Notes: generated from the letters alone by a model not told the origin. Positions 4,196-61,980 are shown, counted from the stretch's first letter. The stretch: 64,000 nt of DNA from Candidatus Binatia bacterium (GCA_963664015.2 CAXXLF010000001.1:576001-640000), one strand, 5' to 3'. A program made the numbers and translations.

Positions 4196-4254
4196 AGTCT
4201 AGATTCTCTCTCTTTTCGACCTTAAAAGCCAAGGACCGCTTTGGGTCTAGCCCA

Positions 4255-4668
4255 CTATTCCTTGACCCAGCACGCGGACGCCACGTGATCCAGGACCCCA
4301 TTGATGAAGGTCGCTGAATCCTCCGAACCGAAGCGTTTACTCACCTCGATGGCCTCATCGATACTGACGTTGTGGGGAATATCAGGACAGAACAATAACT
4401 CAAAGGTTGCCAGACGAAGGATATTCAAATCGACCCGCGGCATCCGGGTCAGTTTCCAGTGGTCCGTGGCCTTTTCGATCAGGTGGTCAATATCTTTTTT
4501 TTGCAGCAGTACACCGCCAACTAGCCGGCGGGCAAAATCTCTAGCCTTAATGTTCGCCTCGAAATGGCTCCATAAAAGCTCCAGTGTGGCCGCTGCCGAA
4601 TCACCGGTCATGTCGATTTGATAGAGAGCCTGTAGGGCCAGTTCCCTACCTCTACGTCGTATACCCAT
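4255..4668 (-). CDS. nusB: Transcription antitermination factor NusB
   Basis: RRRGRELALQALYQ, IDEAIEVSKRFG, FINGVLD. Confidence 0.96.
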   Translation of the reverse strand: MGIRRRGRELALQALYQIDMTGDSAAATLELLWSHFEANIKARDFARRLVGGVLLQKKDIDHLIEKATDHWKLTRMPRVDLNILRLATFELLFCPDIPHNVSIDEAIEVSKRFGSEDSATFINGVLDHVASACWVKE

Positions 4669-21007: not shown

Positions 21008-22171
21008 CGCGTCCTGGATTTCCTCTCTCACCTCTTCTACAGTCTCAATTCCTAATCGTTCTTCAAGCACAGAACGCGTATCATCACTTGCTATTTCCCC
21101 CAACGCCCAGGCCGCATGCTGCCGGACCAGGGGCTCATGATCACCCAGTGCCTTGGATAAGGCAGGAATACTCTCTTTATTTTTCAGATTCCCCAATGCA
21201 ACGGCCACATTACGCAAGAAACCGCGCCGCTTAGCACGAAGTACGGGCGAGCCGCGGAAGCGGTATTTAAATTCCTCATCGCTCAGAGACAGCAAGGGAA
21301 TAAGCTCAGGCGTGAGCAACCCGTCCCGTGGCATGTAAACACTTTCGTCAGTCGGCTTCGCCTTAACATTATAAGGACAGACCTCCTGGCAGATATCGCA
21401 GCCAAAAACGTGGTTTCCCATAAGGGGCCGGAGGTGTTTGGGGATGGCGGTCTTTAATTCGATAGTGAGATAAGAGATGCAGCGCCGCGCGTCCAGGACA
21501 TACGGCCCCACAAAGGCCCCCGTGGGACAGGCCTTGAGACAGAGATCACAGCTCCCGCACCGATCCTTTATAGGATGGTCATACGCTAATTCTATGTTGA
21601 GGAACAGCTCGCCAAGAAAGAACCACGACCCCTTCTGCGGCGAGATCAGCATCGTGTTCTTCCCTATCCACCCGATCCCCGAGGCCGCGGCCAACTCACG
21701 CTCCAACACCGGTCCTGAGTCAGTGAACACCTTGCCTTCTACAGGCTCAGGACTGCCTTCGACAAGCGTAGGATAGGCCACCTTTATATTGGCAAGCAGC
21801 TTATTGAGTCTTGCCTTGATAATTTCGTGATAATCATCGCCCCACGCATAACGCGAGATCCATCCTTGTACGCCTTTAACGCCTACCTCTTCCGTCCTTT
21901 TATAGGACGTCTGATAGTTCATCCCCACGGAGATCACGGACTTGGCTCCCGGCACCAGCTTGCCCGGGTCCCGCCTCACCTCCTCCGTCCTCGGCATATA
22001 GGCCATCTCCCCCGCAAACCCCTTCCTCAACCATTCGGCAAACGACTCCTCATGCCTCGGCGCCTGCACCGGCGACACCCCCACCAGATCAAACCCCAGC
22101 CCCTGCGCGGCCCCCTTTATATAGGAAGTTAATTCTGTAACGTCTTTATCTTTCTCAGTCGCCATAACCAA
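20990..22171 (-). CDS. queG: tRNA epoxyqueuosine(34) reductase with HEAT-repeat C-terminus
   Basis: SRYAWGDDYH, GWIGKN, GSWFFLG, CGSCDLCLKACP, CISYLTIE, GCDICQEVCP. Confidence 0.95.
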   Translation of the reverse strand: MVMATEKDKDVTELTSYIKGAAQGLGFDLVGVSPVQAPRHEESFAEWLRKGFAGEMAYMPRTEEVRRDPGKLVPGAKSVISVGMNYQTSYKRTEEVGVKGVQGWISRYAWGDDYHEIIKARLNKLLANIKVAYPTLVEGSPEPVEGKVFTDSGPVLERELAAASGIGWIGKNTMLISPQKGSWFFLGELFLNIELAYDHPIKDRCGSCDLCLKACPTGAFVGPYVLDARRCISYLTIELKTAIPKHLRPLMGNHVFGCDICQEVCPYNVKAKPTDESVYMPRDGLLTPELIPLLSLSDEEFKYRFRGSPVLRAKRRGFLRNVAVALGNLKNKESIPALSKALGDHEPLVRQHAAWALGEIASDDTRSVLEERLGIETVEEVREEIQDALSRFA

Positions 22172-22431
22172 GGTCTATTCTATCGCCTTTTTCGCCAAAT
22201 AGAACCAGAGGACGCCCTCCTATGCACTTCTACCTATTGATTTAATGACAGACGCATACGAAAGGTCAAGAAAAGACAGACAAGACGAGGATTGAGATAC
22301 ATACGACTATATCGTGAGGGTGCCAATGAGTCTCATTTCTGAGAAATACGACCTAAACATGCGCTGACAAAAAGCCCTCGTTTTCAAAATAACTGATGTT
22401 GCAACAAGCCCGATAGCCATATCCGTTTTTC

Positions 22432-24046
22432 TTAGTTCATTGTCTCCCAGACATCTTTTTTACAATTTTCCAACTCACATTGTATAAAACATGCAGCTTT
22501 GATAGCAGACTTAACCGCCCCCTTCATAAGACTGCTGTCGTGCCGGTCGCTAAAATAACTCCCTCCAAAATAGAGACCGCCCACAGGCCCCAACTTAAAT
22601 TCGATCCCTTCACTGTATTTCACCGCAGGTTGGGCGCCTGAATACGCCTTGCCCCGATAGGACATTTCGATCGGGCAATCGTTATTTCCGTTTCTGATTC
22701 TACATTCTGATCTTACTCGTTGATAGCTTTTCTGAGCACCCGACCAGAGGGACTCGAAACGGTCAAGTACTCCATTTGCAAAGGCTTCCCGTTGACTCGG
22801 CTTATCCGATGCCAATTCACGAGCCTGTCGACCGGTAACATAGACAACTTGAGTTGCGATTGTCGGTATTCCTTTCCGCCCGCTGCTAGCACTCCAAGTG
22901 GTATAACCCTCATGGTGATAAGTACTTCCGAAATGCCGATTGTCCCTCCAGGCGGGTCTATAAAAACAGAGAAAGACTTTGGGCGCGGATGTAAACTGAG
23001 CGCTCTTAACGAGTTCCTTTTAGCTGAGCCAAAGGAAACTTTGGCATGTTATCGAATTCTATTTCGCCAATAACATGAACGGGAAGTGTAAGAATAACAT
23101 AATCGATTTTTTAAACTTTAACCCCTTGGGGAGCACTAAACCTCAGCTGGTACTTGCCCCCTCCACTAATACCTTAGAACCGACGATTCGTATTGATTAT
23201 ATTTGGATCAAGTTGTTTGGTTAATCTGCTTACCAGCTGAATTGGCCCACCTTTAAGCCGGGACTTCCCGTCATGAGACGCAAACGTTTTAATCCAATGG
23301 TATCCATCCTTACGGATTGATTTAAACAATATATCAATGGACTCTAAGAGCTTGAGTGAGATCGATTCCTCAAGTGGTTTTCCCTGAGTAGAGAGAATCT
23401 TGAGTTTAATATATTCATAAAACAATTTACTTGGTGGCTGCTCCCATTCAAAATTCGTTAAGAAACTCTTGATTGACACCTTCTCCAACCGATCAACGAT
23501 CTTTCGGTCAGCTTCATCTCCTTTTTTAGCAAAATGTCAGTAAACTGAATCACGGACCTTATCGAGTTGGAACAACATTTTAATCTCTTTTGCACAAAAT
23601 AGTTTAATCATCTCCTTCTGTAATATAGAGATAATTCGGCCGTTTCTGTTCTTAAAGAAAAGAGTCCCATCATTCCATTTGTCGTTTTCCTCCCAACTAT
23701 AGAGCTCGAGCTTAGCCGAATGGCCTTTATTGAGATCATGAATTAATTGGAGAGTTCCCTTTTGGTTTGAATCAATAAGCTCAGCGCCTACACTCAAGGC
23801 ACCCTCCGAATAGACACTTTTGCCTGTCATGATTCTTCCATTGAGACGATTTGTCTTTTCAAACAACCTAACTTCGAGACAGTTGAGCTTGTTCAAATAG
23901 TATTCAGTTAAAACCCCTGCCAATTCTCCACCAATAACAGTAACTTTCTTGGGTACACATTGTTTCGCGCTCACTCCTTCTATAAGCCATATGAGAGTGA
24001 GACCAATTATTGAAAATGAAAATACGAGTTTTATATTTCTCCGTAT
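22432..24046 (-). pseudogene. Flavin-containing amine oxidase remnant (AT-rich)
   Basis: Ordered fragments: signal peptide, VIGGELAG, RLNGRI, GAELID, LKGG, DYVILTLP, AYS, LYFGGS..MKGAVKSAIKAA; TGA 23537, frameshifts, ATA start. Confidence 0.72.
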
Positions 24047-54436: not shown

Positions 54437-55177
54437 ATGGACGAGGGGCCGAAATCGAAGGATACCATCCGTAAGGAGGTTTGGCGGAACTTGAAGGAAA
54501 GCAAGGTGACCCGCTTCCCCGGCGTTAAAGGCAGAATTCCTAACTTTATCGGCGCCGAGAGCGCAGCACGCCGGCTCTGTGAGTCTCGTCTGTGGAAAAA
54601 GGCTAAGATCATCAAGATCAACCCAGACTCGCCCCAACGTGCCATCCGTCAGAAAGCCCTCGAGGAGGGAAAAACCCTTTATATGGCAGTGCCCCGATTG
54701 AGAGAGGAAAAGCCTTTCATTGAAGTGGATCCCAAAAAAGTAAAGGGATCCCCTCTTCAAGCCTCGTCCATCAAGGGGGCGGACCGCTACGGCCGCCTGG
54801 TTTCACTTCAAGAAGTCAAAAAGATCGATCTGATTGTCTGCGGTTCCGTCGCCGTCAACAAGGAAGGTGCACGAATAGGCAAAGGTGGAGGCTACTCGGA
54901 CATCGAGTACGCCATACTCCGGGAAGAGGGTAAAGTCGACGTTAAGACACCGATCATCACCACGGTTCACCGATTGCAAATCCTTAGCGAGCCGATACCT
55001 ATGACTGAGCACGACATCCCCTTGAACGCGGTGGCTACGGATACCGAATTTATTATCGTCAAGAACCGCCACCGAAAACCGACGGGAATTTATTGGCAGA
55101 GCCTGGAACCGGAAAAGATCGAGGCCATCCCCATTTTACAGTCACGGATGGGTTTCGGGAGCAAGACCGGTCAGTGA
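54437..55177 (+). CDS. 5-formyltetrahydrofolate cyclo-ligase paralog (MTHFSD type)
   Basis: GRIPNFIGA, KINPDSPQ, GSVAV..GARIGKGGGYSDIEY, HDIP. Confidence 0.85.
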   Translation: MDEGPKSKDTIRKEVWRNLKESKVTRFPGVKGRIPNFIGAESAARRLCESRLWKKAKIIKINPDSPQRAIRQKALEEGKTLYMAVPRLREEKPFIEVDPKKVKGSPLQASSIKGADRYGRLVSLQEVKKIDLIVCGSVAVNKEGARIGKGGGYSDIEYAILREEGKVDVKTPIITTVHRLQILSEPIPMTEHDIPLNAVATDTEFIIVKNRHRKPTGIYWQSLEPEKIEAIPILQSRMGFGSKTGQ

Positions 55178-55611
55178 AAGGAGCTCCCGTTCTTCCCTTT
55201 CTCATCGAGGAAGGGTTGCCGCCCCGTATAGCCATCCTGAATGCCATGCCAGTGGCTGATACTTTCCTCATCATAGCGCCAACACAAAAACACCGCTTCG
55301 CCTCCCATCATACAGGGAAAGTCCACCAGCCCCTCTTCGACCCCCTTGCAAACGCAGCCTATTCCGTTGATCTCTTCTACCAGCGATTCCAACTGTGCCA
55401 TGGCATCACGGACGGTCTCGTCTTTCTGGAGACGATTCAACAAGTCTGGGCTTTCGGGTTCAATACCCTCCTTACGAATGACCGTCTCGCTTTTGCTTCT
55501 CAATAGATCAAGACACTCAAAGATTCGCTTCATCAGGGGCCGCAAGGTTGGTAGCAGCCCCCTAGCCTCGGCAATCGTGAAAAGACGGGGAAAGGCCTGG
55601 TAACGACTCAT
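55171..55611 (-). CDS. DUF2203 family protein
   Basis: FTIAEA..LP, GLVDFP, VFLCWRYDE, WH....GY.GR. Confidence 0.85.
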   Translation of the reverse strand: MSRYQAFPRLFTIAEARGLLPTLRPLMKRIFECLDLLRSKSETVIRKEGIEPESPDLLNRLQKDETVRDAMAQLESLVEEINGIGCVCKGVEEGLVDFPCMMGGEAVFLCWRYDEESISHWHGIQDGYTGRQPFLDEKGKNGSSFH

Positions 55612-55635
55612 GATACAGGTACGCTCGCTGCCAGG

Positions 55636-56928
55636 TTAGAGACCCAGCCCCTTTTCTAATTCCTTGAGCAGGGAGATGTTGTCCGAATGACCAGTCATAC
55701 AGGCCGTGACCATACCCCGGATGGGTTTACCTAACAAATAAAAGTCCCCCACAATGTCGAGGATTTTATGACGGGCGAGTTCATTGGGATAACGCAGGTC
55801 TGTGTTGATGATCTTATCATCGTCAATCAAAATACAATTGGTGAGACGACCTCCATTGGCCAGGCCCATCTTCTCCAGCTGCTCGATATCTTTGACAAAA
55901 CCAAAGGTACGCGCCGCAGCAATCTCCTCGCGAAAGGACTCGGCGCCCGTATGAATGTATGTATGCTCCTGCATTCCTACCGGTGCCGGGTAATTGAGAA
56001 TATAGCGCACTCCAAAGGTATCCGCCGGCTCGATCGTAATCCACTCGCCCCCCTTGGCTTCTGCACGGTAAGTCTTGTCGACTACGATCTCCGACCAGGC
56101 CGCGTCCTGCTCCTCAATCCCCGCCTCTTCGATCAACCGGCAAAATTCCAACGCCGAGCCGTCCATGATTGGAATCTCGTCGTGCATTTTGACCAACAGG
56201 TTACTGATTCCGTAGGAATGCAAGGTGGCAAGAAAGTGTTCCACCGTTTTCACTATGATACCCTTGGATTGAAGCGATGTCGCGTATCCGGTGGAATGCA
56301 CGTAATGCAGGAGTGCTGGGACGGTGGCATCGGCTGAAATGCCGGTAAAGAGTATGCCACTGTTGGGCGGCAGCGGATGAAGGATCAGCCCCGTCTTCAC
56401 ACCCGAGTGAAGCCCCTGCCCGGCACCGACAACACCCTTTTTAAGCGTCTTCTGCTTTAACGTCTTCTTTGGAATTCTCTTGGACTTCGATGCCCGGGCA
56501 CGGGGTTGCCCCTTGGCTCGCGGGGCGATCTTCTTTTTGGCCGGGCTCTTCGGTGCGGGATAGTCCTCCAGCGCCCGATGCACCGTTTCCAACAAGCTGT
56601 CCAGGGAGAGGGGCTTTTCCAGGAAATCAAAGGCTCCCAGCTTCGCAGCCGCGACAGCCGTATGGATATTTCCATGACCGGAAATCATAATCACCCGCGT
56701 TTCCGGCTGCCGGTCCTTGATGTGCTTCAAGAGATCGATCCCGTCCATGTCCGGCATCCAGATGTCCAGCAGGACGAGATCGGGCCGCACTTTCCCGATA
56801 AGGTCCAACGCTCGAGCCCCCTGCTGAGCCTCCGCAACTTTGTATCCCTCATCGGTCAGGATTTCCCGTACGGTCTCGCGAATTCCACCCTCATCATCAA
56901 CCACTAAAATGGTTTTTTCTTTTTTCAT
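55636..56928 (-). CDS. lpxC: Receiver domain-LpxC fusion (UDP-3-O-acyl-GlcNAc deacetylase)
   Basis: aa 1-120 receiver (DD, D55 in LLDIWMP, ISGHG, KP); aa ~158-430 LpxC (QKTL, GLHSG, TVEH, PIMDGSA, ARTFGF, HKILD..GD, GH). Confidence 0.93.
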   Translation of the reverse strand: MKKEKTILVVDDEGGIRETVREILTDEGYKVAEAQQGARALDLIGKVRPDLVLLDIWMPDMDGIDLLKHIKDRQPETRVIMISGHGNIHTAVAAAKLGAFDFLEKPLSLDSLLETVHRALEDYPAPKSPAKKKIAPRAKGQPRARASKSKRIPKKTLKQKTLKKGVVGAGQGLHSGVKTGLILHPLPPNSGILFTGISADATVPALLHYVHSTGYATSLQSKGIIVKTVEHFLATLHSYGISNLLVKMHDEIPIMDGSALEFCRLIEEAGIEEQDAAWSEIVVDKTYRAEAKGGEWITIEPADTFGVRYILNYPAPVGMQEHTYIHTGAESFREEIAAARTFGFVKDIEQLEKMGLANGGRLTNCILIDDDKIINTDLRYPNELARHKILDIVGDFYLLGKPIRGMVTACMTGHSDNISLLKELEKGLGL

Positions 56929-56983
56929 CAGTCCAAGCTTTCCGTCGCTGTGATATCAGCTATCCAGATATCTTTGGCCAAAC

Positions 56984-59224
56984 TTAGATGGCCGCACCAT
57001 GCTCCCTTTTCCTCAACTCGGCAGTTCGGGCATGATGGGAAACCGGTAATTCAATCACGAAGCGTGTCCCCTGGGGCTCGTTGGGACGAACCCGGATATA
57101 GCCCCTGTGATCCGCGATGATGGTACTCACAATGGCCAGCCCCAAACCCGTACCGTCTTGCTTGGTGGAAAAATAAGGCTCAAAGATATTTTCTCTGACC
57201 TCCGGAGAGAGGCCGCTGCCATTGTCCGCCACTTCCAGGTGAACGATTCCCAAAGAAGGGTCGTAGTTGGTGGAGATCTCAACCTGGCCGTTTTTACCGA
57301 CCACCGCTACCGCATTATCGAGAAGGTTGATCATTACCCGTTTGATCTGCTCCTGGTCCAGTTCAAGCATGGGGAGCTCCCCCCTCCTATCAAATCGGAA
57401 TTGGATTCCCTTATGGCCCTCATTGAAAAGGAAAAGGGCCTCCTGGACCAGCTCGTTGAGATCATTGGGCGCAAGCTTGGCGGCGGGAAGGCGGGCAAAA
57501 TTGGAGAACTCGTTCACCAGGATTTTGAGGCCCTCGACCTGTTTGATAATCGTCGAAGTACATTTGTCCAGAACATCCCCATCGGTTTTGAGTAAAGACT
57601 CATAACGCTTTCTCAACCGCTGGGCGGAAAGCTGAATAGGGGTGAGCGGGTTTTTGATTTCGTGTGCGATGCGACGGGCCACTTCTCGCCACGCCTCCAT
57701 CCTTTGAACCTTTTGAATCTCCGTAATGTCTTCGAGAAACATCATAGCGCCGAGGGTATTTCCCTCATCGTCTCTCAGAGTAGCGGCAGAAACGACCAGG
57801 GTCAAAACCCGATCACGCCGCGACAGCTTGATCTCCCGTTCGATACCGAAGCTTCCCTGAACCTGATCGACAATCTCCCGGAGAACACCCAATGGCTCCG
57901 ACTGGAAGGACTCGGTATAATGCTTTCCCAGTACCTGCCCCGCGTCGAGCCCCAGGAGCTGCTCACCCGCCCGATTGATGGTCGTCACCCTCCCCTGTGG
58001 GTCAATGGAAACTACCCCCGCCGTCACGTTCGCCAGTAGGGTTTCCATGTATCGCCGTCGCTGCTCCAATTCCGTGTTGATCTGTTTGAGATCACGGGTC
58101 ATCTGATTGAAAGAGTCGACCAGCATTCCGATCTCGTCGTCTCCACTGGCACCGATCTGATAATCCCAATTACCGTGGGCGACTTCGTGAGTTCCTTCTG
58201 CGAGTTTTTGAATTGGAACCGTGATGCCTTTGGCCAGGTAAAGACCAAACCAGGTCGCGGAAAAGATAATCACCAAGGTGAAGAGCATCAAGGTCAACAT
58301 GTAGGTATCCTTGATGTCCTCCTGGAAGATGGCCATATTCTTGTGCTCATCGTAAGAGCGCCGAATCTGGAGTGCCCTTTTGGTTACGCTCTTGGGAACA
58401 AAGTAATCCACAACGACCACTCCAAGGATCTTGCCATCGACGCTCTTGACCGGCACGCCGCCGCGAATGATGTCCCCTTCCCCAAAGGGTTGAGTGCGGG
58501 TCACTTCCAGTCCGCGTAACGCGCGATTGAGGAATTCGGACTCGGGTTTAATCGTGATTCCCGTTGGCACCTGGTCATTGAAAGAAGCCACGAGTGCTTT
58601 TCGCTCCGGTGAGAAGATCTCAACCGTGCCCAGATTATATTCGCGCTGCTTGGACTCGATGAAATCTTTGAGCTTCACTATTTGATCACGCTCAAAGAGC
58701 CCGGCCTCGGTGATTCGCCTGCTGAGCTGTCGGGCGTAAAAGAGCGCATTATTGGCTGCGTTCTGGTAGTAAGTCTCGCCAATCTCCACCGAGCCCCTGA
58801 GTGCGTTGCCTATTTGAGCGTCGAACCACTTATCGAACGACTTGGTGACGAACGCTCCGGCAATAAAATAGAGGAGCAACGTCGGGACCAGGGAAAGTCC
58901 GATAAAAACCACGACCAGGCGGACCCGCAGGCGCGATCCCAGGATCCCCCTTCTGCGCTCGAACAGGAGCTTGACCAGGTTACGGACGACCAGGAAGACT
59001 AGAAGAACAAGCAGGATGATGTTGATGTTGACGAGGAGGAAAAAAGCGATGTTGTTGCTGAGGGAATAATCCGTGGAGATTTCCGGGAGCAGGAGCTCGA
59101 AGAAGGCAAAGAGCAGTACCATCAGGGTGGCAATGAGCATAACCCACCCCTCGCGTTTTCTCCTTTTCACCTCCTCGTTTCGGAGGCTATCTTCTAATTC
59201 AACAGACCTGTTCGGTGAAACCAT
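56984..59224 (-). CDS. ntrY: NtrY-family sensor histidine kinase (TMs, periplasmic domain, HAMP, PAS)
   Basis: AWREVARRIAHEIKNPLTPIQLSA H-box, NLLDNA, DNGSG, GTGLGL. Confidence 0.9.
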   Translation of the reverse strand: MVSPNRSVELEDSLRNEEVKRRKREGWVMLIATLMVLLFAFFELLLPEISTDYSLSNNIAFFLLVNINIILLVLLVFLVVRNLVKLLFERRRGILGSRLRVRLVVVFIGLSLVPTLLLYFIAGAFVTKSFDKWFDAQIGNALRGSVEIGETYYQNAANNALFYARQLSRRITEAGLFERDQIVKLKDFIESKQREYNLGTVEIFSPERKALVASFNDQVPTGITIKPESEFLNRALRGLEVTRTQPFGEGDIIRGGVPVKSVDGKILGVVVVDYFVPKSVTKRALQIRRSYDEHKNMAIFQEDIKDTYMLTLMLFTLVIIFSATWFGLYLAKGITVPIQKLAEGTHEVAHGNWDYQIGASGDDEIGMLVDSFNQMTRDLKQINTELEQRRRYMETLLANVTAGVVSIDPQGRVTTINRAGEQLLGLDAGQVLGKHYTESFQSEPLGVLREIVDQVQGSFGIEREIKLSRRDRVLTLVVSAATLRDDEGNTLGAMMFLEDITEIQKVQRMEAWREVARRIAHEIKNPLTPIQLSAQRLRKRYESLLKTDGDVLDKCTSTIIKQVEGLKILVNEFSNFARLPAAKLAPNDLNELVQEALFLFNEGHKGIQFRFDRRGELPMLELDQEQIKRVMINLLDNAVAVVGKNGQVEISTNYDPSLGIVHLEVADNGSGLSPEVRENIFEPYFSTKQDGTGLGLAIVSTIIADHRGYIRVRPNEPQGTRFVIELPVSHHARTAELRKREHGAAI

Positions 59225-59265
59225 AAGCAATCACACGCCAAATAACCGCGCCAGAACCTCATCCT

Positions 59266-59568
59266 CTATCGTCTGAACGAGGACAGGACATGCATTCATA
59301 GGGTGCTGATAAGCAGGCTTGTAGCCGGTAGAAAATGAAGCCTCCACGGGCTTACGCCGGTAGAATCCTTCCATTCTCCGGCGGAATCCACGGACGCACC
59401 CTCCTTTCCTACTCCGCCGAAGCAGCCGATTCGGCTGCGGAGGCGAATGACCCGAAAAGTTACCCCTTTCAATGGCCATTCCCCCGGTAGATACCCCAAC
59501 GTAAATACCACGCCCATCACGACCAATACAACGCCGATAGCGATAATGATCCGGCCGAGGAGGCTCAT
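59266..59568 (-). pseudogene. DUF2905 family protein, disrupted
   Basis: LGYLPG / AIERGNF / insert / HFLPATSLLIS..*..FRR*; frameshift, ~112-bp insert and TGA 59296. Confidence 0.7.
59341..59452. mobile_element. Palindromic REP/MITE-like insertion
   Basis: Hairpins CCGGTAGAAT..ATTCTCCGG and GCAGCCGA-T-TCGGCTGC interrupt a conserved coding motif. Confidence 0.55.
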
Positions 59569-59587
59569 TCCTTGTATAACCTTTGAA

Positions 59588-60631
59588 TTACAAAAGGTTC
59601 TGTTGCTTACCGGACTCGCCCCTTTGGTTCGCATCTTTACGGCGACCGAAATGCTTGTAGGCCAGCGCGGTTGCGACCCGTCCCCGGGGGGTACGATTCA
59701 GGTAACCGATCTGGATCAGGTAGGGCTCATAGGCGTCCTCGATGGTGTCCTTCTCTTCCCCGATAGCGGCTGCCAGAGTTTCTAAACCGACAGGCCCTCC
59801 GTCGAATTTGTCAATCAGAGTGAGCAGGATCATGGTGTCCATTTTATCCAAGCCACCGCGGTCGATCTCTAACATTGCAAGAGCGCGCTCGGTTACCTCT
59901 TGTGTAATGGTGCCATCCCCCTTGACCTGGGCGTAATCGCGAACCCTGCGCAGCAAACGATTAGCTATTCTCGGTGTGCCCCGGGAACGTCGTGCAATCT
60001 CGGCGAACCCATCAGGATTCCCCTTCGTCCCCAAGATAGCAGCCGAGCGCTGCAGGATTTGCACCAATGTCTCCGGCGCATAAAAATCGAGTCGAAAGAC
60101 AGCACCGAATCGATTGCGCAAAGCCGGAGTAAGAAGACCGGACCGGGTGGTTGCCCCTATTAATGTAAACCGCTTGAGTTCCAGCTTAATGGATCGAGCG
60201 GACGGCCCCTGGCCAATCATAATATCGACCTGATAGTCCTCCATGGCCGGATAGAGGACCTCTTCGACAATGTGGTTTAATCGATGAATTTCATCGATAA
60301 ACAGAATATCGCCTTCCTGCAGGTTGGTTAGTAGCGCAGCAAGATCTCCCGGCCGCTCCACTACCGGGCCCGAGGTCGCCTTGATGTTCACACCCATTTC
60401 TTTCGAAATAATGTAGGCCAAGGAGGTCTTACCCAGACCCGGCGGCCCATGAAAGAGGAAATGGTCTAAAACGTCCTTGCGCCCCCGGGCCGCGGCAATG
60501 GCCACCTTGAGGTTCTCCTTGACCTTTTCCTGCCCCACATATTCTTCGAAGCCACGAGGTCGGAGACCGGTCTCGAAGCTTATGTCCTCTTCCGTCGGAC
60601 GGGTAGAGATTTCGTTGGGACTCATAGTCAT
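59588..60631 (-). CDS. ruvB: Holliday junction DNA helicase RuvB
   Basis: [39 protein letters not shown]. Confidence 0.98.
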
Positions 60632-60728
60632 CAATGATACCCCCAAACCCCGCTAGGCCCCCGCCAATCCCAGCGTACCAGCCGTATCTTGCGTACCCAG
60701 TTGATCATGTTTATCATGGGTCTCTTCA

Positions 60729-61319
60729 CTACTGACTCAGTCGGCGCAAGGTCTCTTTCAACACCTCTTCCAGATTACCATTGCCGTTCCGTACCACTTC
60801 CCGCACGACCTTATCCGACTCCATACGCCGGTAACCCAGGTTAACCAGAGCGGACACGGCATCCCGCATCAGCTGGGAACTACCATTGGCAGTGTCCATG
60901 GGCTCCGCCTCAGGCATCGCGGCCAGCTTATCTTTCAGTTCTACAATCATCCTCTCGGCAAGGCGCTTCCCCACACCAGGGACGGATACCAAACGGACCT
61001 GGTCGCCATCTATCAAGGCCCGGACCAGTTCCTGGGACGGGATCCCCGAAAGAATACCAAGTGCTAGTTTTGGTCCAATTCCATTCACCCCATTCATCAT
61101 TAAGAAGGCGCGCTTTTCTTCGTGGTCCAGGAAGCCAAAGAGCTGTAGGGCATCCTCACGCAGGTGTGTGTGGACGAATAGACTGACCGGTGCACCGACC
61201 TCTGGAAGCCGGTAAAAGACGCTCAATGAGGTAAACAGATGATAGCCTACTCCGCCAACATCTACGATCGCTTCTCCAGGCGTTTTTTCGGCAAGTGTGC
61301 CGCTTAGTTTCGCTATCAT
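60729..61319 (-). CDS. ruvA: Holliday junction protein RuvA
   Basis: VGGVGY, REDALQLFGF, GIGPKLAL, PGVGKRLAER, ALVNLGY. Confidence 0.96.
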   Translation of the reverse strand: MIAKLSGTLAEKTPGEAIVDVGGVGYHLFTSLSVFYRLPEVGAPVSLFVHTHLREDALQLFGFLDHEEKRAFLMMNGVNGIGPKLALGILSGIPSQELVRALIDGDQVRLVSVPGVGKRLAERMIVELKDKLAAMPEAEPMDTANGSSQLMRDAVSALVNLGYRRMESDKVVREVVRNGNGNLEEVLKETLRRLSQ

Positions 61320-61422
61320 CGGGTTATTCGGTACCGTTTGTCATCTATGGATGTCGGTCGCTCACTCAAACCTGAACCGGCGCAATTGGATGAGCGCCGG
61401 GAACATGCACATGTCGAAAGCC

Positions 61423-61980
61423 TTACCAGTGCCTCCGTCTAGACCGCGTTAGTGAATCCGCAGCCTTTACCTGTGAATGAAAACTATCCTGATGGAGATG
61501 GCAGATGGCCGCTGCAAGGGCGTCGGCAGCGTCGGGAGCGAGGGGGCTGGAGAGATTGAGCAACGATGCAACCATCTTTTGGACCTGCAGCTTGCTGGCG
61601 TGGCCATAACCCACGACGGCTTGTTTGATGGTGACCGAATTGTACTCTTGAACCTCCATTTGGCTTTCGGTAGCGGCCAGTAAGGCCACACCGCGGGCCT
61701 GCCCCAGTTTCAACGCGCTTTGTGCGTTTCGTGCAAAGAAAACCTTTTCCACACTGATAATCCCTGGCTGATAGCGGGAGAGAACCTCGTTGAGCCCGTG
61801 ATAGATTCGGCTCAGCCGCAGCCCCTGCGTCAGACCAGGCTGCATCGTAATAGTACCATGGGCCAGATGAAATAGAGAGGTGCCATGGAGTTCTACAATT
61901 CCCCAGCCCGTATGAATGGTACCGGGGTCGACTCCCAGAACCCGTCCCCCATTATTATCTGTCACCGGCCCGGTTCCCAA
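61423..61980 (-). CDS. ruvC: Crossover junction endodeoxyribonuclease RuvC
   Basis: LGVDPG, VEKVF, LGQARG, DAADALAAAICH. Confidence 0.96.
   Translation of the reverse strand: MGTGPVTDNNGGRVLGVDPGTIHTGWGIVELHGTSLFHLAHGTITMQPGLTQGLRLSRIYHGLNEVLSRYQPGIISVEKVFFARNAQSALKLGQARGVALLAATESQMEVQEYNSVTIKQAVVGYGHASKLQVQKMVASLLNLSSPLAPDAADALAAAICHLHQDSFHSQVKAADSLTRSRRRHW

Follow-up and report, generated by a model that had tools for sequence, protein, structure and literature searches.

Outer-membrane lipid synthesis is controlled at LpxC, the enzyme of the committed step towards lipid A and a target of antibiotics, and the described systems that act on this enzyme in Escherichia coli (FtsH/LapB/YejM) and Pseudomonas aeruginosa (MurA) consist of separate proteins that work by proteolysis or binding, with no receiver or phosphorylation step in the available text of a 2025 review in the Journal of Biological Chemistry (PMC12444477). 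The same review covers control of lpxC by the NtrYX two-component system, which is negative in alphaproteobacteria (PMC12444477), and in Rhodobacter sphaeroides deletion of ntrYX raised lpxC mRNA 8.8-fold and increased lipopolysaccharide (LPS), with no NtrX site reported at lpxC (PMC7240162). In Desulfovibrio vulgaris, lpxC is reported to be the one target mapped for the DNA-binding regulator DVU2934 (Rajeev et al. 2011, PMC3333781), and lpxC lies directly upstream of the orthologous operon in Syntrophobacter fumaroxidans (PMC3333781). Here we describe a gene that joins a receiver (REC) domain to a complete LpxC and follows the gene of an NtrY-type sensor histidine kinase on the minus strand of a 64,000-nucleotide stretch of DNA from Candidatus Binatia bacterium (GCA_963664015.2, CAXXLF010000001.1:576001-640000), the whole of which is called the window below. 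We consider it probable that the two genes encode a two-component system whose response regulator would be the cell's only LpxC, the kinase setting LpxC output directly.

The locus resembles NtrY/NtrX in that the kinase has the same architecture (NtrY_N, HAMP, PAS, HisKA and HATPase_c) and the receiver best matches the NtrX model, and a connection of NtrY/NtrX with lpxC expression and with the amount of LPS has been documented (PMC7240162, PMC12444477). NtrX differs, however, in being a DNA-binding protein with many targets and an indirect, negative effect on lpxC, whereas the output domain in the window is LpxC itself. The DVU2931–DVU2934 system likewise includes a regulator that targets lpxC, and the gene order in S. 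fumaroxidans is that of all nine unfused relatives considered below (PMC3333781), but its control is transcriptional and exerted through separate proteins, and it is likened to the regulators treated here by description only. The other known natural fusion of this enzyme, LpxC-FabZ of Bacteroidota, Chlorobiota and others (PMC3087551, NF009667), unites two enzymes of the pathway, with FabZ at the C-terminus of LpxC, and has no N-terminal signalling domain in the descriptions available. The initial annotation, made from the DNA alone, had stated that no characterised example of a receiver-LpxC fusion was known, and our full-text literature searches turned up no paper describing one, with the limit that response-regulator censuses in subscription journals were outside their reach and may list it; the words receiver, fused and fusion are absent from the available text of the 2025 review of LpxC regulation (PMC12444477).

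The REC-LpxC open reading frame (ORF; 55636-56928, minus strand) starts with ATG and runs uninterrupted for 430 amino acids. Its receiver domain (residues 1-122; 56563..56928) matches PF00072 Response_reg over residues 7-116 with 120.1 bits against a cut-off of 30.2, and its LpxC domain (residues 157-430 plus the stop codon; 55636..56460) matches PF03331 over residues 159-424 with 271.9 bits against a cut-off of 27 and scores 245.4 bits with the NCBIfam lpxC equivalog TIGR00325, exceeding the cut-off of 187.25. Between them lies a linker (residues 123-156; 56461..56562) rich in Lys, Arg and Pro, with a net charge of about +12, predicted to be disordered and unconserved in sequence. Receivers depend on an acidic pair, an Asp acceptor and a Ser/Thr plus Lys switch, and LpxC on its zinc ligands and a catalytic Glu and His. 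In the window protein the receiver has D11/D12, D55 (the putative phospho-acceptor, codon 56764-56766), S83, F102 and K105, and the enzyme has E230/H231, T341, H387/K388/D391/D395 and H414. The single 430-residue frame that the initial annotation had proposed was thus borne out by the ORF and by both Pfam and NCBIfam, and a codon check placed D11, D12, D55, S83, K105, E230, H231, H387, K388, D391, D395 and H414 exactly where it had put them. It had also called the receiver NtrX-like, and NtrX is indeed the best-scoring NCBIfam response-regulator model (137.8 bits, model positions 3-122), although the fusion stays far below the cut-off of 600 bits of the full NtrX equivalog (NF051870). By these matches the receiver is of the NtrX/NtrC type.

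Comparison with solved structures agrees with this division. LpxC structures of P. aeruginosa, E. coli and Aquifex match the C-terminal part over its whole length (best E 9.8e-52), E230-H231, H387, D391 and H414 falling on the same residues in the P. aeruginosa chains, and NtrC-family receivers match the N-terminal part (4.1e-27); among the solved-structure matches listed, none covers both halves of the fusion. An AlphaFold2 model built from a 35-sequence alignment has a mean pLDDT (per-residue confidence) of 84.4, with two confident domains separated by a linker (residues 123-153) below 50. Its receiver consists of five strand-helix units, with strands (E) and helices (H) at E6-10/H14-26/E30-34/H37-47/E51-55/H63-73/E78-83/H88-96/E101-104/H109-119. 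A Foldseek search with the model gave solved LpxC structures as top matches (E to 3.4e-33, TM-score by target 0.83-0.95). A complex prediction of the receiver (residues 1-122) against LpxC (157-430) scored 0.00, without controls, and weighs neither way on docking. Taken from their residues and folds, both domains look functional.

The kinase (56984..59230, minus strand) is 748 amino acids long and is separated from the fusion by a spacer of 55 bp (56929..56983) between its stop codon and the REC-LpxC start, so that the same-strand NtrY-family kinase that the initial annotation had placed 55 bp upstream stands. Its start was given there as 59224, where there is indeed an in-frame ATG; the ORF start called here is a TTG at 59230, two codons earlier. 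All its Pfam matches lie above their cut-offs: NtrY_N with 30.0 bits (cut-off 23.2), HAMP 48.5, PAS 58.1, HisKA 39.7 and HATPase_c 86.0. No NtrY model is among the 25 NCBIfam families listed for it, the best of which (the LIC_11548 family and AtoS) score far under their cut-offs. The protein has four hydrophobic segments (residues 30-48, 64-82, 105-123 and 312-330), with a loop of about 180 residues between the third and the fourth, an H-box HEIKNP containing H523, and the N, G1 and G2 boxes.

The fusion recurs far beyond this assembly. Of 40 relatives belonging to three families of the order, 39 have it at full length, and in the fortieth (G001) it is split over two contigs; besides the full-length copies, the LpxC-region matches listed for these genomes comprise just two others, the divided G001 gene and a fragment at a contig end in G018. 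Both Pfam domains occur in all 120 best matches from a collection of 5.8 billion proteins and the same two-domain set in 17 of the 30 nearest ESM Atlas clusters, and complete short fusions among representatives at 50% identity measure 412-461 amino acids and extend down to about 32% identity. The lineage labels on related contigs of metagenome-assembled genomes (MAGs) carrying the fusion include Thermodesulfobacteriota/'Deltaproteobacteria', Binatia, Thermodesulfovibrionia and Leptospirales. Across the phylum, 120 sampled genomes comprised 26 with a fusion, 91 with a stand-alone LpxC and three without a match at 1e-30; the 26 fusions divide into 15 short ones, three with a spacer of about 60 residues and eight in open frames of 690-837 amino acids, three of the long and two of the intermediate ones being confirmed by tblastn and the rest assigned from frame length. 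Named database records call the protein simply LpxC, and the fusion is abundant in databases (thousands of metagenome proteins), not rare, and mis-annotated. In an independent seawater run, a contig of 1641 nt covers the ORF from end to end and differs from it by 24 substitutions and by no indel; the 4.2-kb stretch also occurs in full and without change on contigs from two studies, and these contigs may be its source. The initial annotation had allowed that the junction might not be spanned or that the fusion might be confined to this assembly, and neither proved to be so. An assembly or gene-calling artefact was considered and rejected, its probability being negligible given the 39 of 40 relatives, the thousands of independent contigs and the strain-variant contig across the ORF.

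The genome to which the window belongs (G000; 3.51 Mb, two contigs, 97% complete) has a single match to PF03331, namely the fusion, and contains LpxB, LpxD and LpxK, as expected of a complete lipid A pathway; the fused gene is its only lpxC, a housekeeping enzyme. The initial annotation had raised the possibility of a second lpxC or a separate ntrX, and neither was found: no protein of the genome reaches the NtrX cut-off. Since the two other NtrC-type regulators that it encodes each lie beside a kinase of their own, the NtrY-like kinase is left without any adjacent partner except REC-LpxC. As a side observation, the kinase used as a query found only five matches in these 3.5 Mb, which suggests a small two-component repertoire. 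The suggested synteny with ntrY also held, the kinase–fusion pair being conserved across the order: the kinase lies directly upstream of the fusion in all 12 informative related loci, as it does in three of three genomes of the same class and in MAGs labelled Binatia and Thermodesulfovibrionia. Where no kinase adjoins the fusion, a full-length orthologue was found elsewhere in five of five genomes.

The origin of the fusion can be followed through its relatives. The nearest non-identical architecture to the window protein is a REC-AAA+-helix-turn-helix (HTH)-LpxC protein of about 720-745 amino acids (named 'NtrX' in some JGI records) that has the same receiver, the same LpxC clade and the same upstream kinase, but carries a degenerate AAA+ module that lacks both GAFTGA and the Walker B glutamate, usually together with an HTH-like stretch; neither module was found in the window fusion, in which Pfam recognises Response_reg and LpxC only. 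An example (L032) is a 734-residue protein with REC, Sigma54_activat, AAA_lid and LpxC behind an NtrY-like kinase, and 119 of its 120 best matches combine LpxC with Sigma54_activat, 115 of them having REC as well; five matches without REC are shorter and probably partial. Just before LpxC, a stretch of 55-70 residues can be aligned with the Fis-type HTH that unfused regulators carry, HTH_8 being confirmed in one case (L106), and two further proteins (P0268 and P0281) consist of REC, an HTH-like stretch and LpxC without the AAA+ module. GAFTGA is absent from all 16 long fusions and present in all six translated regulators of unfused neighbours; Walker A is kept in 14 of the 16, the Walker B glutamate is replaced in 8/8 aligned long fusions, and the AAA+ Pfam score is 130 bits on the side of the fusions against 253 in an unfused neighbour. 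Judged by these motifs, the AAA+ module of the long fusions is decayed.

In the unfused genomes, nine of which were picked because a similar receiver lies about 3 kb from lpxC, the order is lpxC, NtrY-like kinase and REC-AAA+-HTH regulator in nine of nine, with ruvB in front where the flank reaches that far. Seven of 10 unfused loci have a -24/-12 motif at a distance of 46-80 nt upstream of the lpxC match, and the 153,420 nt scanned contain nine matches to the motif in total. No such motif precedes the kinase or the fusion in the window, and in 29 fusion loci (440,578 nt) there were 19 scattered sigma-54 motif matches, none of them seen directly upstream of the fusion gene. In two genomes of one family, a shared sigma-54-like motif that departs from the consensus at one position lies some 2.5 kb ahead of a long fusion (L125 6216, minus strand; L126 1828, plus strand). 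Two other observations concern long fusions: in L033 (3173-5670), a long REC-AAA+-LpxC gene is broken into two frames near 4240-4270, by a frameshift or a MAG assembly error, and a 3.1-kb contig labelled Promethearchaeota archaeon (L031) carries a bacterial-type REC-AAA+-LpxC gene and is most likely mis-binned.

A tree of the LpxC domain (90 rows) unites 40 stand-alone enzymes in a single clade (support 96), and among the fusions the long and short forms are intermingled; P0286, a short one, groups for instance with the long P0274 and P0293 with a support of 100. A set of 45 rows, rooted on six stand-alone rows and analysed under LG+G4 after 41 stand-alone rows and four fragments had been dropped, has well-supported branches that force at least five changes between short and long forms, and monophyly of its 21 short forms was rejected by an approximately unbiased (AU) test (delta lnL, the difference in log-likelihood, 126; p-AU 0.0002). 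A module that has decayed is much more likely to be lost again and again than to be gained repeatedly in the same decayed state, so the AAA+ and HTH modules appear to have been lost several times. On this evidence, the short REC-LpxC descends from a regulator-LpxC fusion by reduction, apparently several times independently.

In an alignment of 35 fusions (32-81% identity), which also served for the comparison of linkers, D12, S83, K105, E230, H231, H387, K388, D391, D395 and H414 are invariant, as is W57; D55 is kept in 34 of the 35, and D11 in 32, the other three having Glu. Since the receiver residues were kept while AAA+ and HTH decayed over the same evolutionary distance, the receiver appears to be under selection for phospho-signalling.

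We therefore envisage the following history and mechanism. In the ancestral state, as seen in the unfused relatives, an NtrY-like kinase would phosphorylate a sigma-54-dependent REC-AAA+-HTH regulator, which would activate the neighbouring lpxC from a -24/-12 promoter. The regulator would then have become fused to LpxC, and its AAA+ and HTH modules would have lost their sigma-54 and ATPase motifs and afterwards been deleted several times independently, leaving a receiver, a floppy linker and LpxC. In the present system, the membrane kinase would sense an envelope or periplasmic cue, or a cytoplasmic one through its PAS domain, phosphate would pass from H523 to D55 of the receiver, and the phosphorylation state of the receiver would set the level of LpxC activity without a transcription step. 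We infer that transcriptional control of lpxC by a two-component system was in this way replaced by direct phospho-control of the enzyme. The initial annotation had suggested that an envelope or redox sensor may switch LPS synthesis by phosphorylating the enzyme directly; sequence supports this suggestion in part, and the gene order and sigma-54 motif of the unfused relatives, together with the intermediate fusions, strengthen it. In CheB, a receiver is flexibly linked to a hydrolase and, when unphosphorylated, blocks its active site; the receiver–linker–enzyme layout of CheB and other enzyme-output response regulators is like that of REC-LpxC, while enzyme, pathway and kinase type differ. We expect the unphosphorylated receiver to restrain LpxC and phosphorylation, which would probably raise LpxC output, to release the restraint. 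Sigma-54 activators can only turn genes on, so the ancestral logic would have been that phosphorylation means more LpxC, and phosphorylation would be expected to relieve inhibition. The wider proposal, that across many Gram-negative lineages a sigma-54 switch of lpxC was short-circuited into direct phospho-control of the enzyme, with lipid A flux set within seconds, seems to us evenly balanced.

Several observations weigh against this account and have to be set beside it. Its weakest step is the sign, that phosphorylation raises LpxC output, which stays uncertain because NtrYX of alphaproteobacteria lowers lpxC expression (PMC7240162, PMC12444477). The linker is unconserved and varies from 25 to 68 residues among the 35 fusions, and this rules out rigid coupling and means that contact between domains or between proteins would be needed; coupling would then go through receiver docking or dimerisation, not through a rigid connector. 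No obvious docking patch emerged when fused and stand-alone LpxC were compared, only seven positions being group-specific (G180, Y239, K247, C263, E300, P314 and L367), and these probably reflect lineage, not an interface. The 454-residue representative P0286 has Asn at the position of D55, the sole case in the 35, and may be a phosphorylation-independent variant. Outside the class of the window, the kinase is often not adjacent to the fusion, and a kinase match is absent from the fetched flanks of six of nine short or intermediate fusion loci of the same phylum. One genome (G074) carries a stand-alone lpxC beside an NtrY-like kinase (L124, contig C33) and a separate REC-LpxC (L117, contig C11), so the fusion is not always the only LpxC; that genome may be a snapshot of the duplication before loss. 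On the side of method, the scans for the -24/-12 motif relied on a general sigma-54 consensus, and the groups compared in the AU test were named after the tree had been seen and evaluated under a simpler model. As a separate observation on G074, its L124 locus has a perfect -24/-12 motif, and no regulator match lies in the 4 kb beyond the kinase.

The main rival to control of activity is control of stability, in which the receiver would govern the lifetime or the binding partners of LpxC and not its catalysis, its phosphorylation state exposing or hiding a surface for degradation or for an adaptor, so that a protease or partner would set the amount of LpxC, a two-component counterpart of the proteolysis that acts on LpxC in E. 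coli. This would be in keeping with the organisms studied, in which LpxC is regulated mainly through protein level or a partner (FtsH/LapB/YejM in E. coli, MurA in P. aeruginosa; PMC12444477), and a recognition module on a tether would be well served by a linker that is floppy and unconserved. The fusion ends six residues past its Pfam LpxC match (residues 159-424 of 430), and a search of the genome for a LapB-type zinc ribbon gave no match, with the limit that the model matches 10 of 14 control genomes, Gram-positives included, and is thus unspecific. On the other hand, no protease, adaptor or degron was identified, and control of stability and direct control of activity share all the genomic evidence; on balance we regard stability control as rather unlikely.

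Two further readings seem to us very improbable, each to much the same degree. The receiver might be a leftover of the fusion, with LpxC constitutive and the kinase signalling elsewhere or nowhere, as could be argued from the AAA+ and HTH modules, parts of one and the same ancestral protein that did decay and disappear, and from the kinase no longer being adjacent in several lineages. Against this stand the invariance of D12, S83, K105 and W57 and the near-invariance of D55 down to 32% identity while the neighbouring modules decayed, the retention of the receiver in every independent reduction, and the want of any other adjacent regulator for the kinase in its own genome. Alternatively, the receiver might mainly bring LpxC to the membrane kinase, a basic linker aiding membrane contact, or act as a phosphate sink. 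Among the 15 sequences that make up the window's clade (at least 68% identity), every linker is basic, with a net charge between +2 and +13, and a LapB homologue has been proposed to localise LpxC to the inner membrane in Neisseria meningitidis (PMC12444477); the basic linker is nevertheless restricted to that clade, the 20 more distant fusions ranging from -4 to +7, and a sink requires another output regulator, of which there is none beside the kinase. Direct setting of LpxC output by the kinase thus remains the reading that we prefer.

REC-LpxC would be an enzyme-output response regulator not previously described and, if phospho-control holds, would represent a new mode of LpxC control, adding a third and so far unrecognised way of keeping LPS in balance to the proteolysis seen in E. 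coli and the binding of MurA in P. aeruginosa. How LpxC is regulated outside a few model species is posed as an open question by the 2025 review (PMC12444477), and the fusion with the sole LpxC of a genome may serve as a 'Rosetta stone' tying NtrY-type kinases to lipid A synthesis; if the account is true, these kinases would fundamentally monitor the envelope. The series from separate genes to full fusion to stripped fusion illustrates how a transcriptional circuit can become direct control of an enzyme, and REC-LpxC offers a simple, purifiable one-protein system for the study of phospho-control of LpxC. By their architecture, thousands of database entries named plain 'LpxC' would in fact be response regulators.

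Of the neighbouring genes, ruvC-ruvA-ruvB lies upstream of the kinase on the same strand (59588..61980), a conserved context. A DUF2203 gene of 146 amino acids (55171..55611, minus strand) begins 24 bp past the stop codon of the fusion and lies downstream of it in 12 of the 13 related loci compared within the order; loci fetched from elsewhere in the phylum, fused or unfused, gave no match to DUF2203, and it may be a lineage-specific partner. A scan of positions 54900-59800 for sigma-70 promoter and terminator consensus sequences gave two promoter-like sites (2.7 expected) and nine terminator-like sites (5.2 expected), which is not above chance; read within that limit, the 55-bp spacer contained no promoter-like or terminator-like site. 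Elsewhere in the window, positions 22001-24000 have a GC content of 0.438, against 0.50-0.60 in the remainder.

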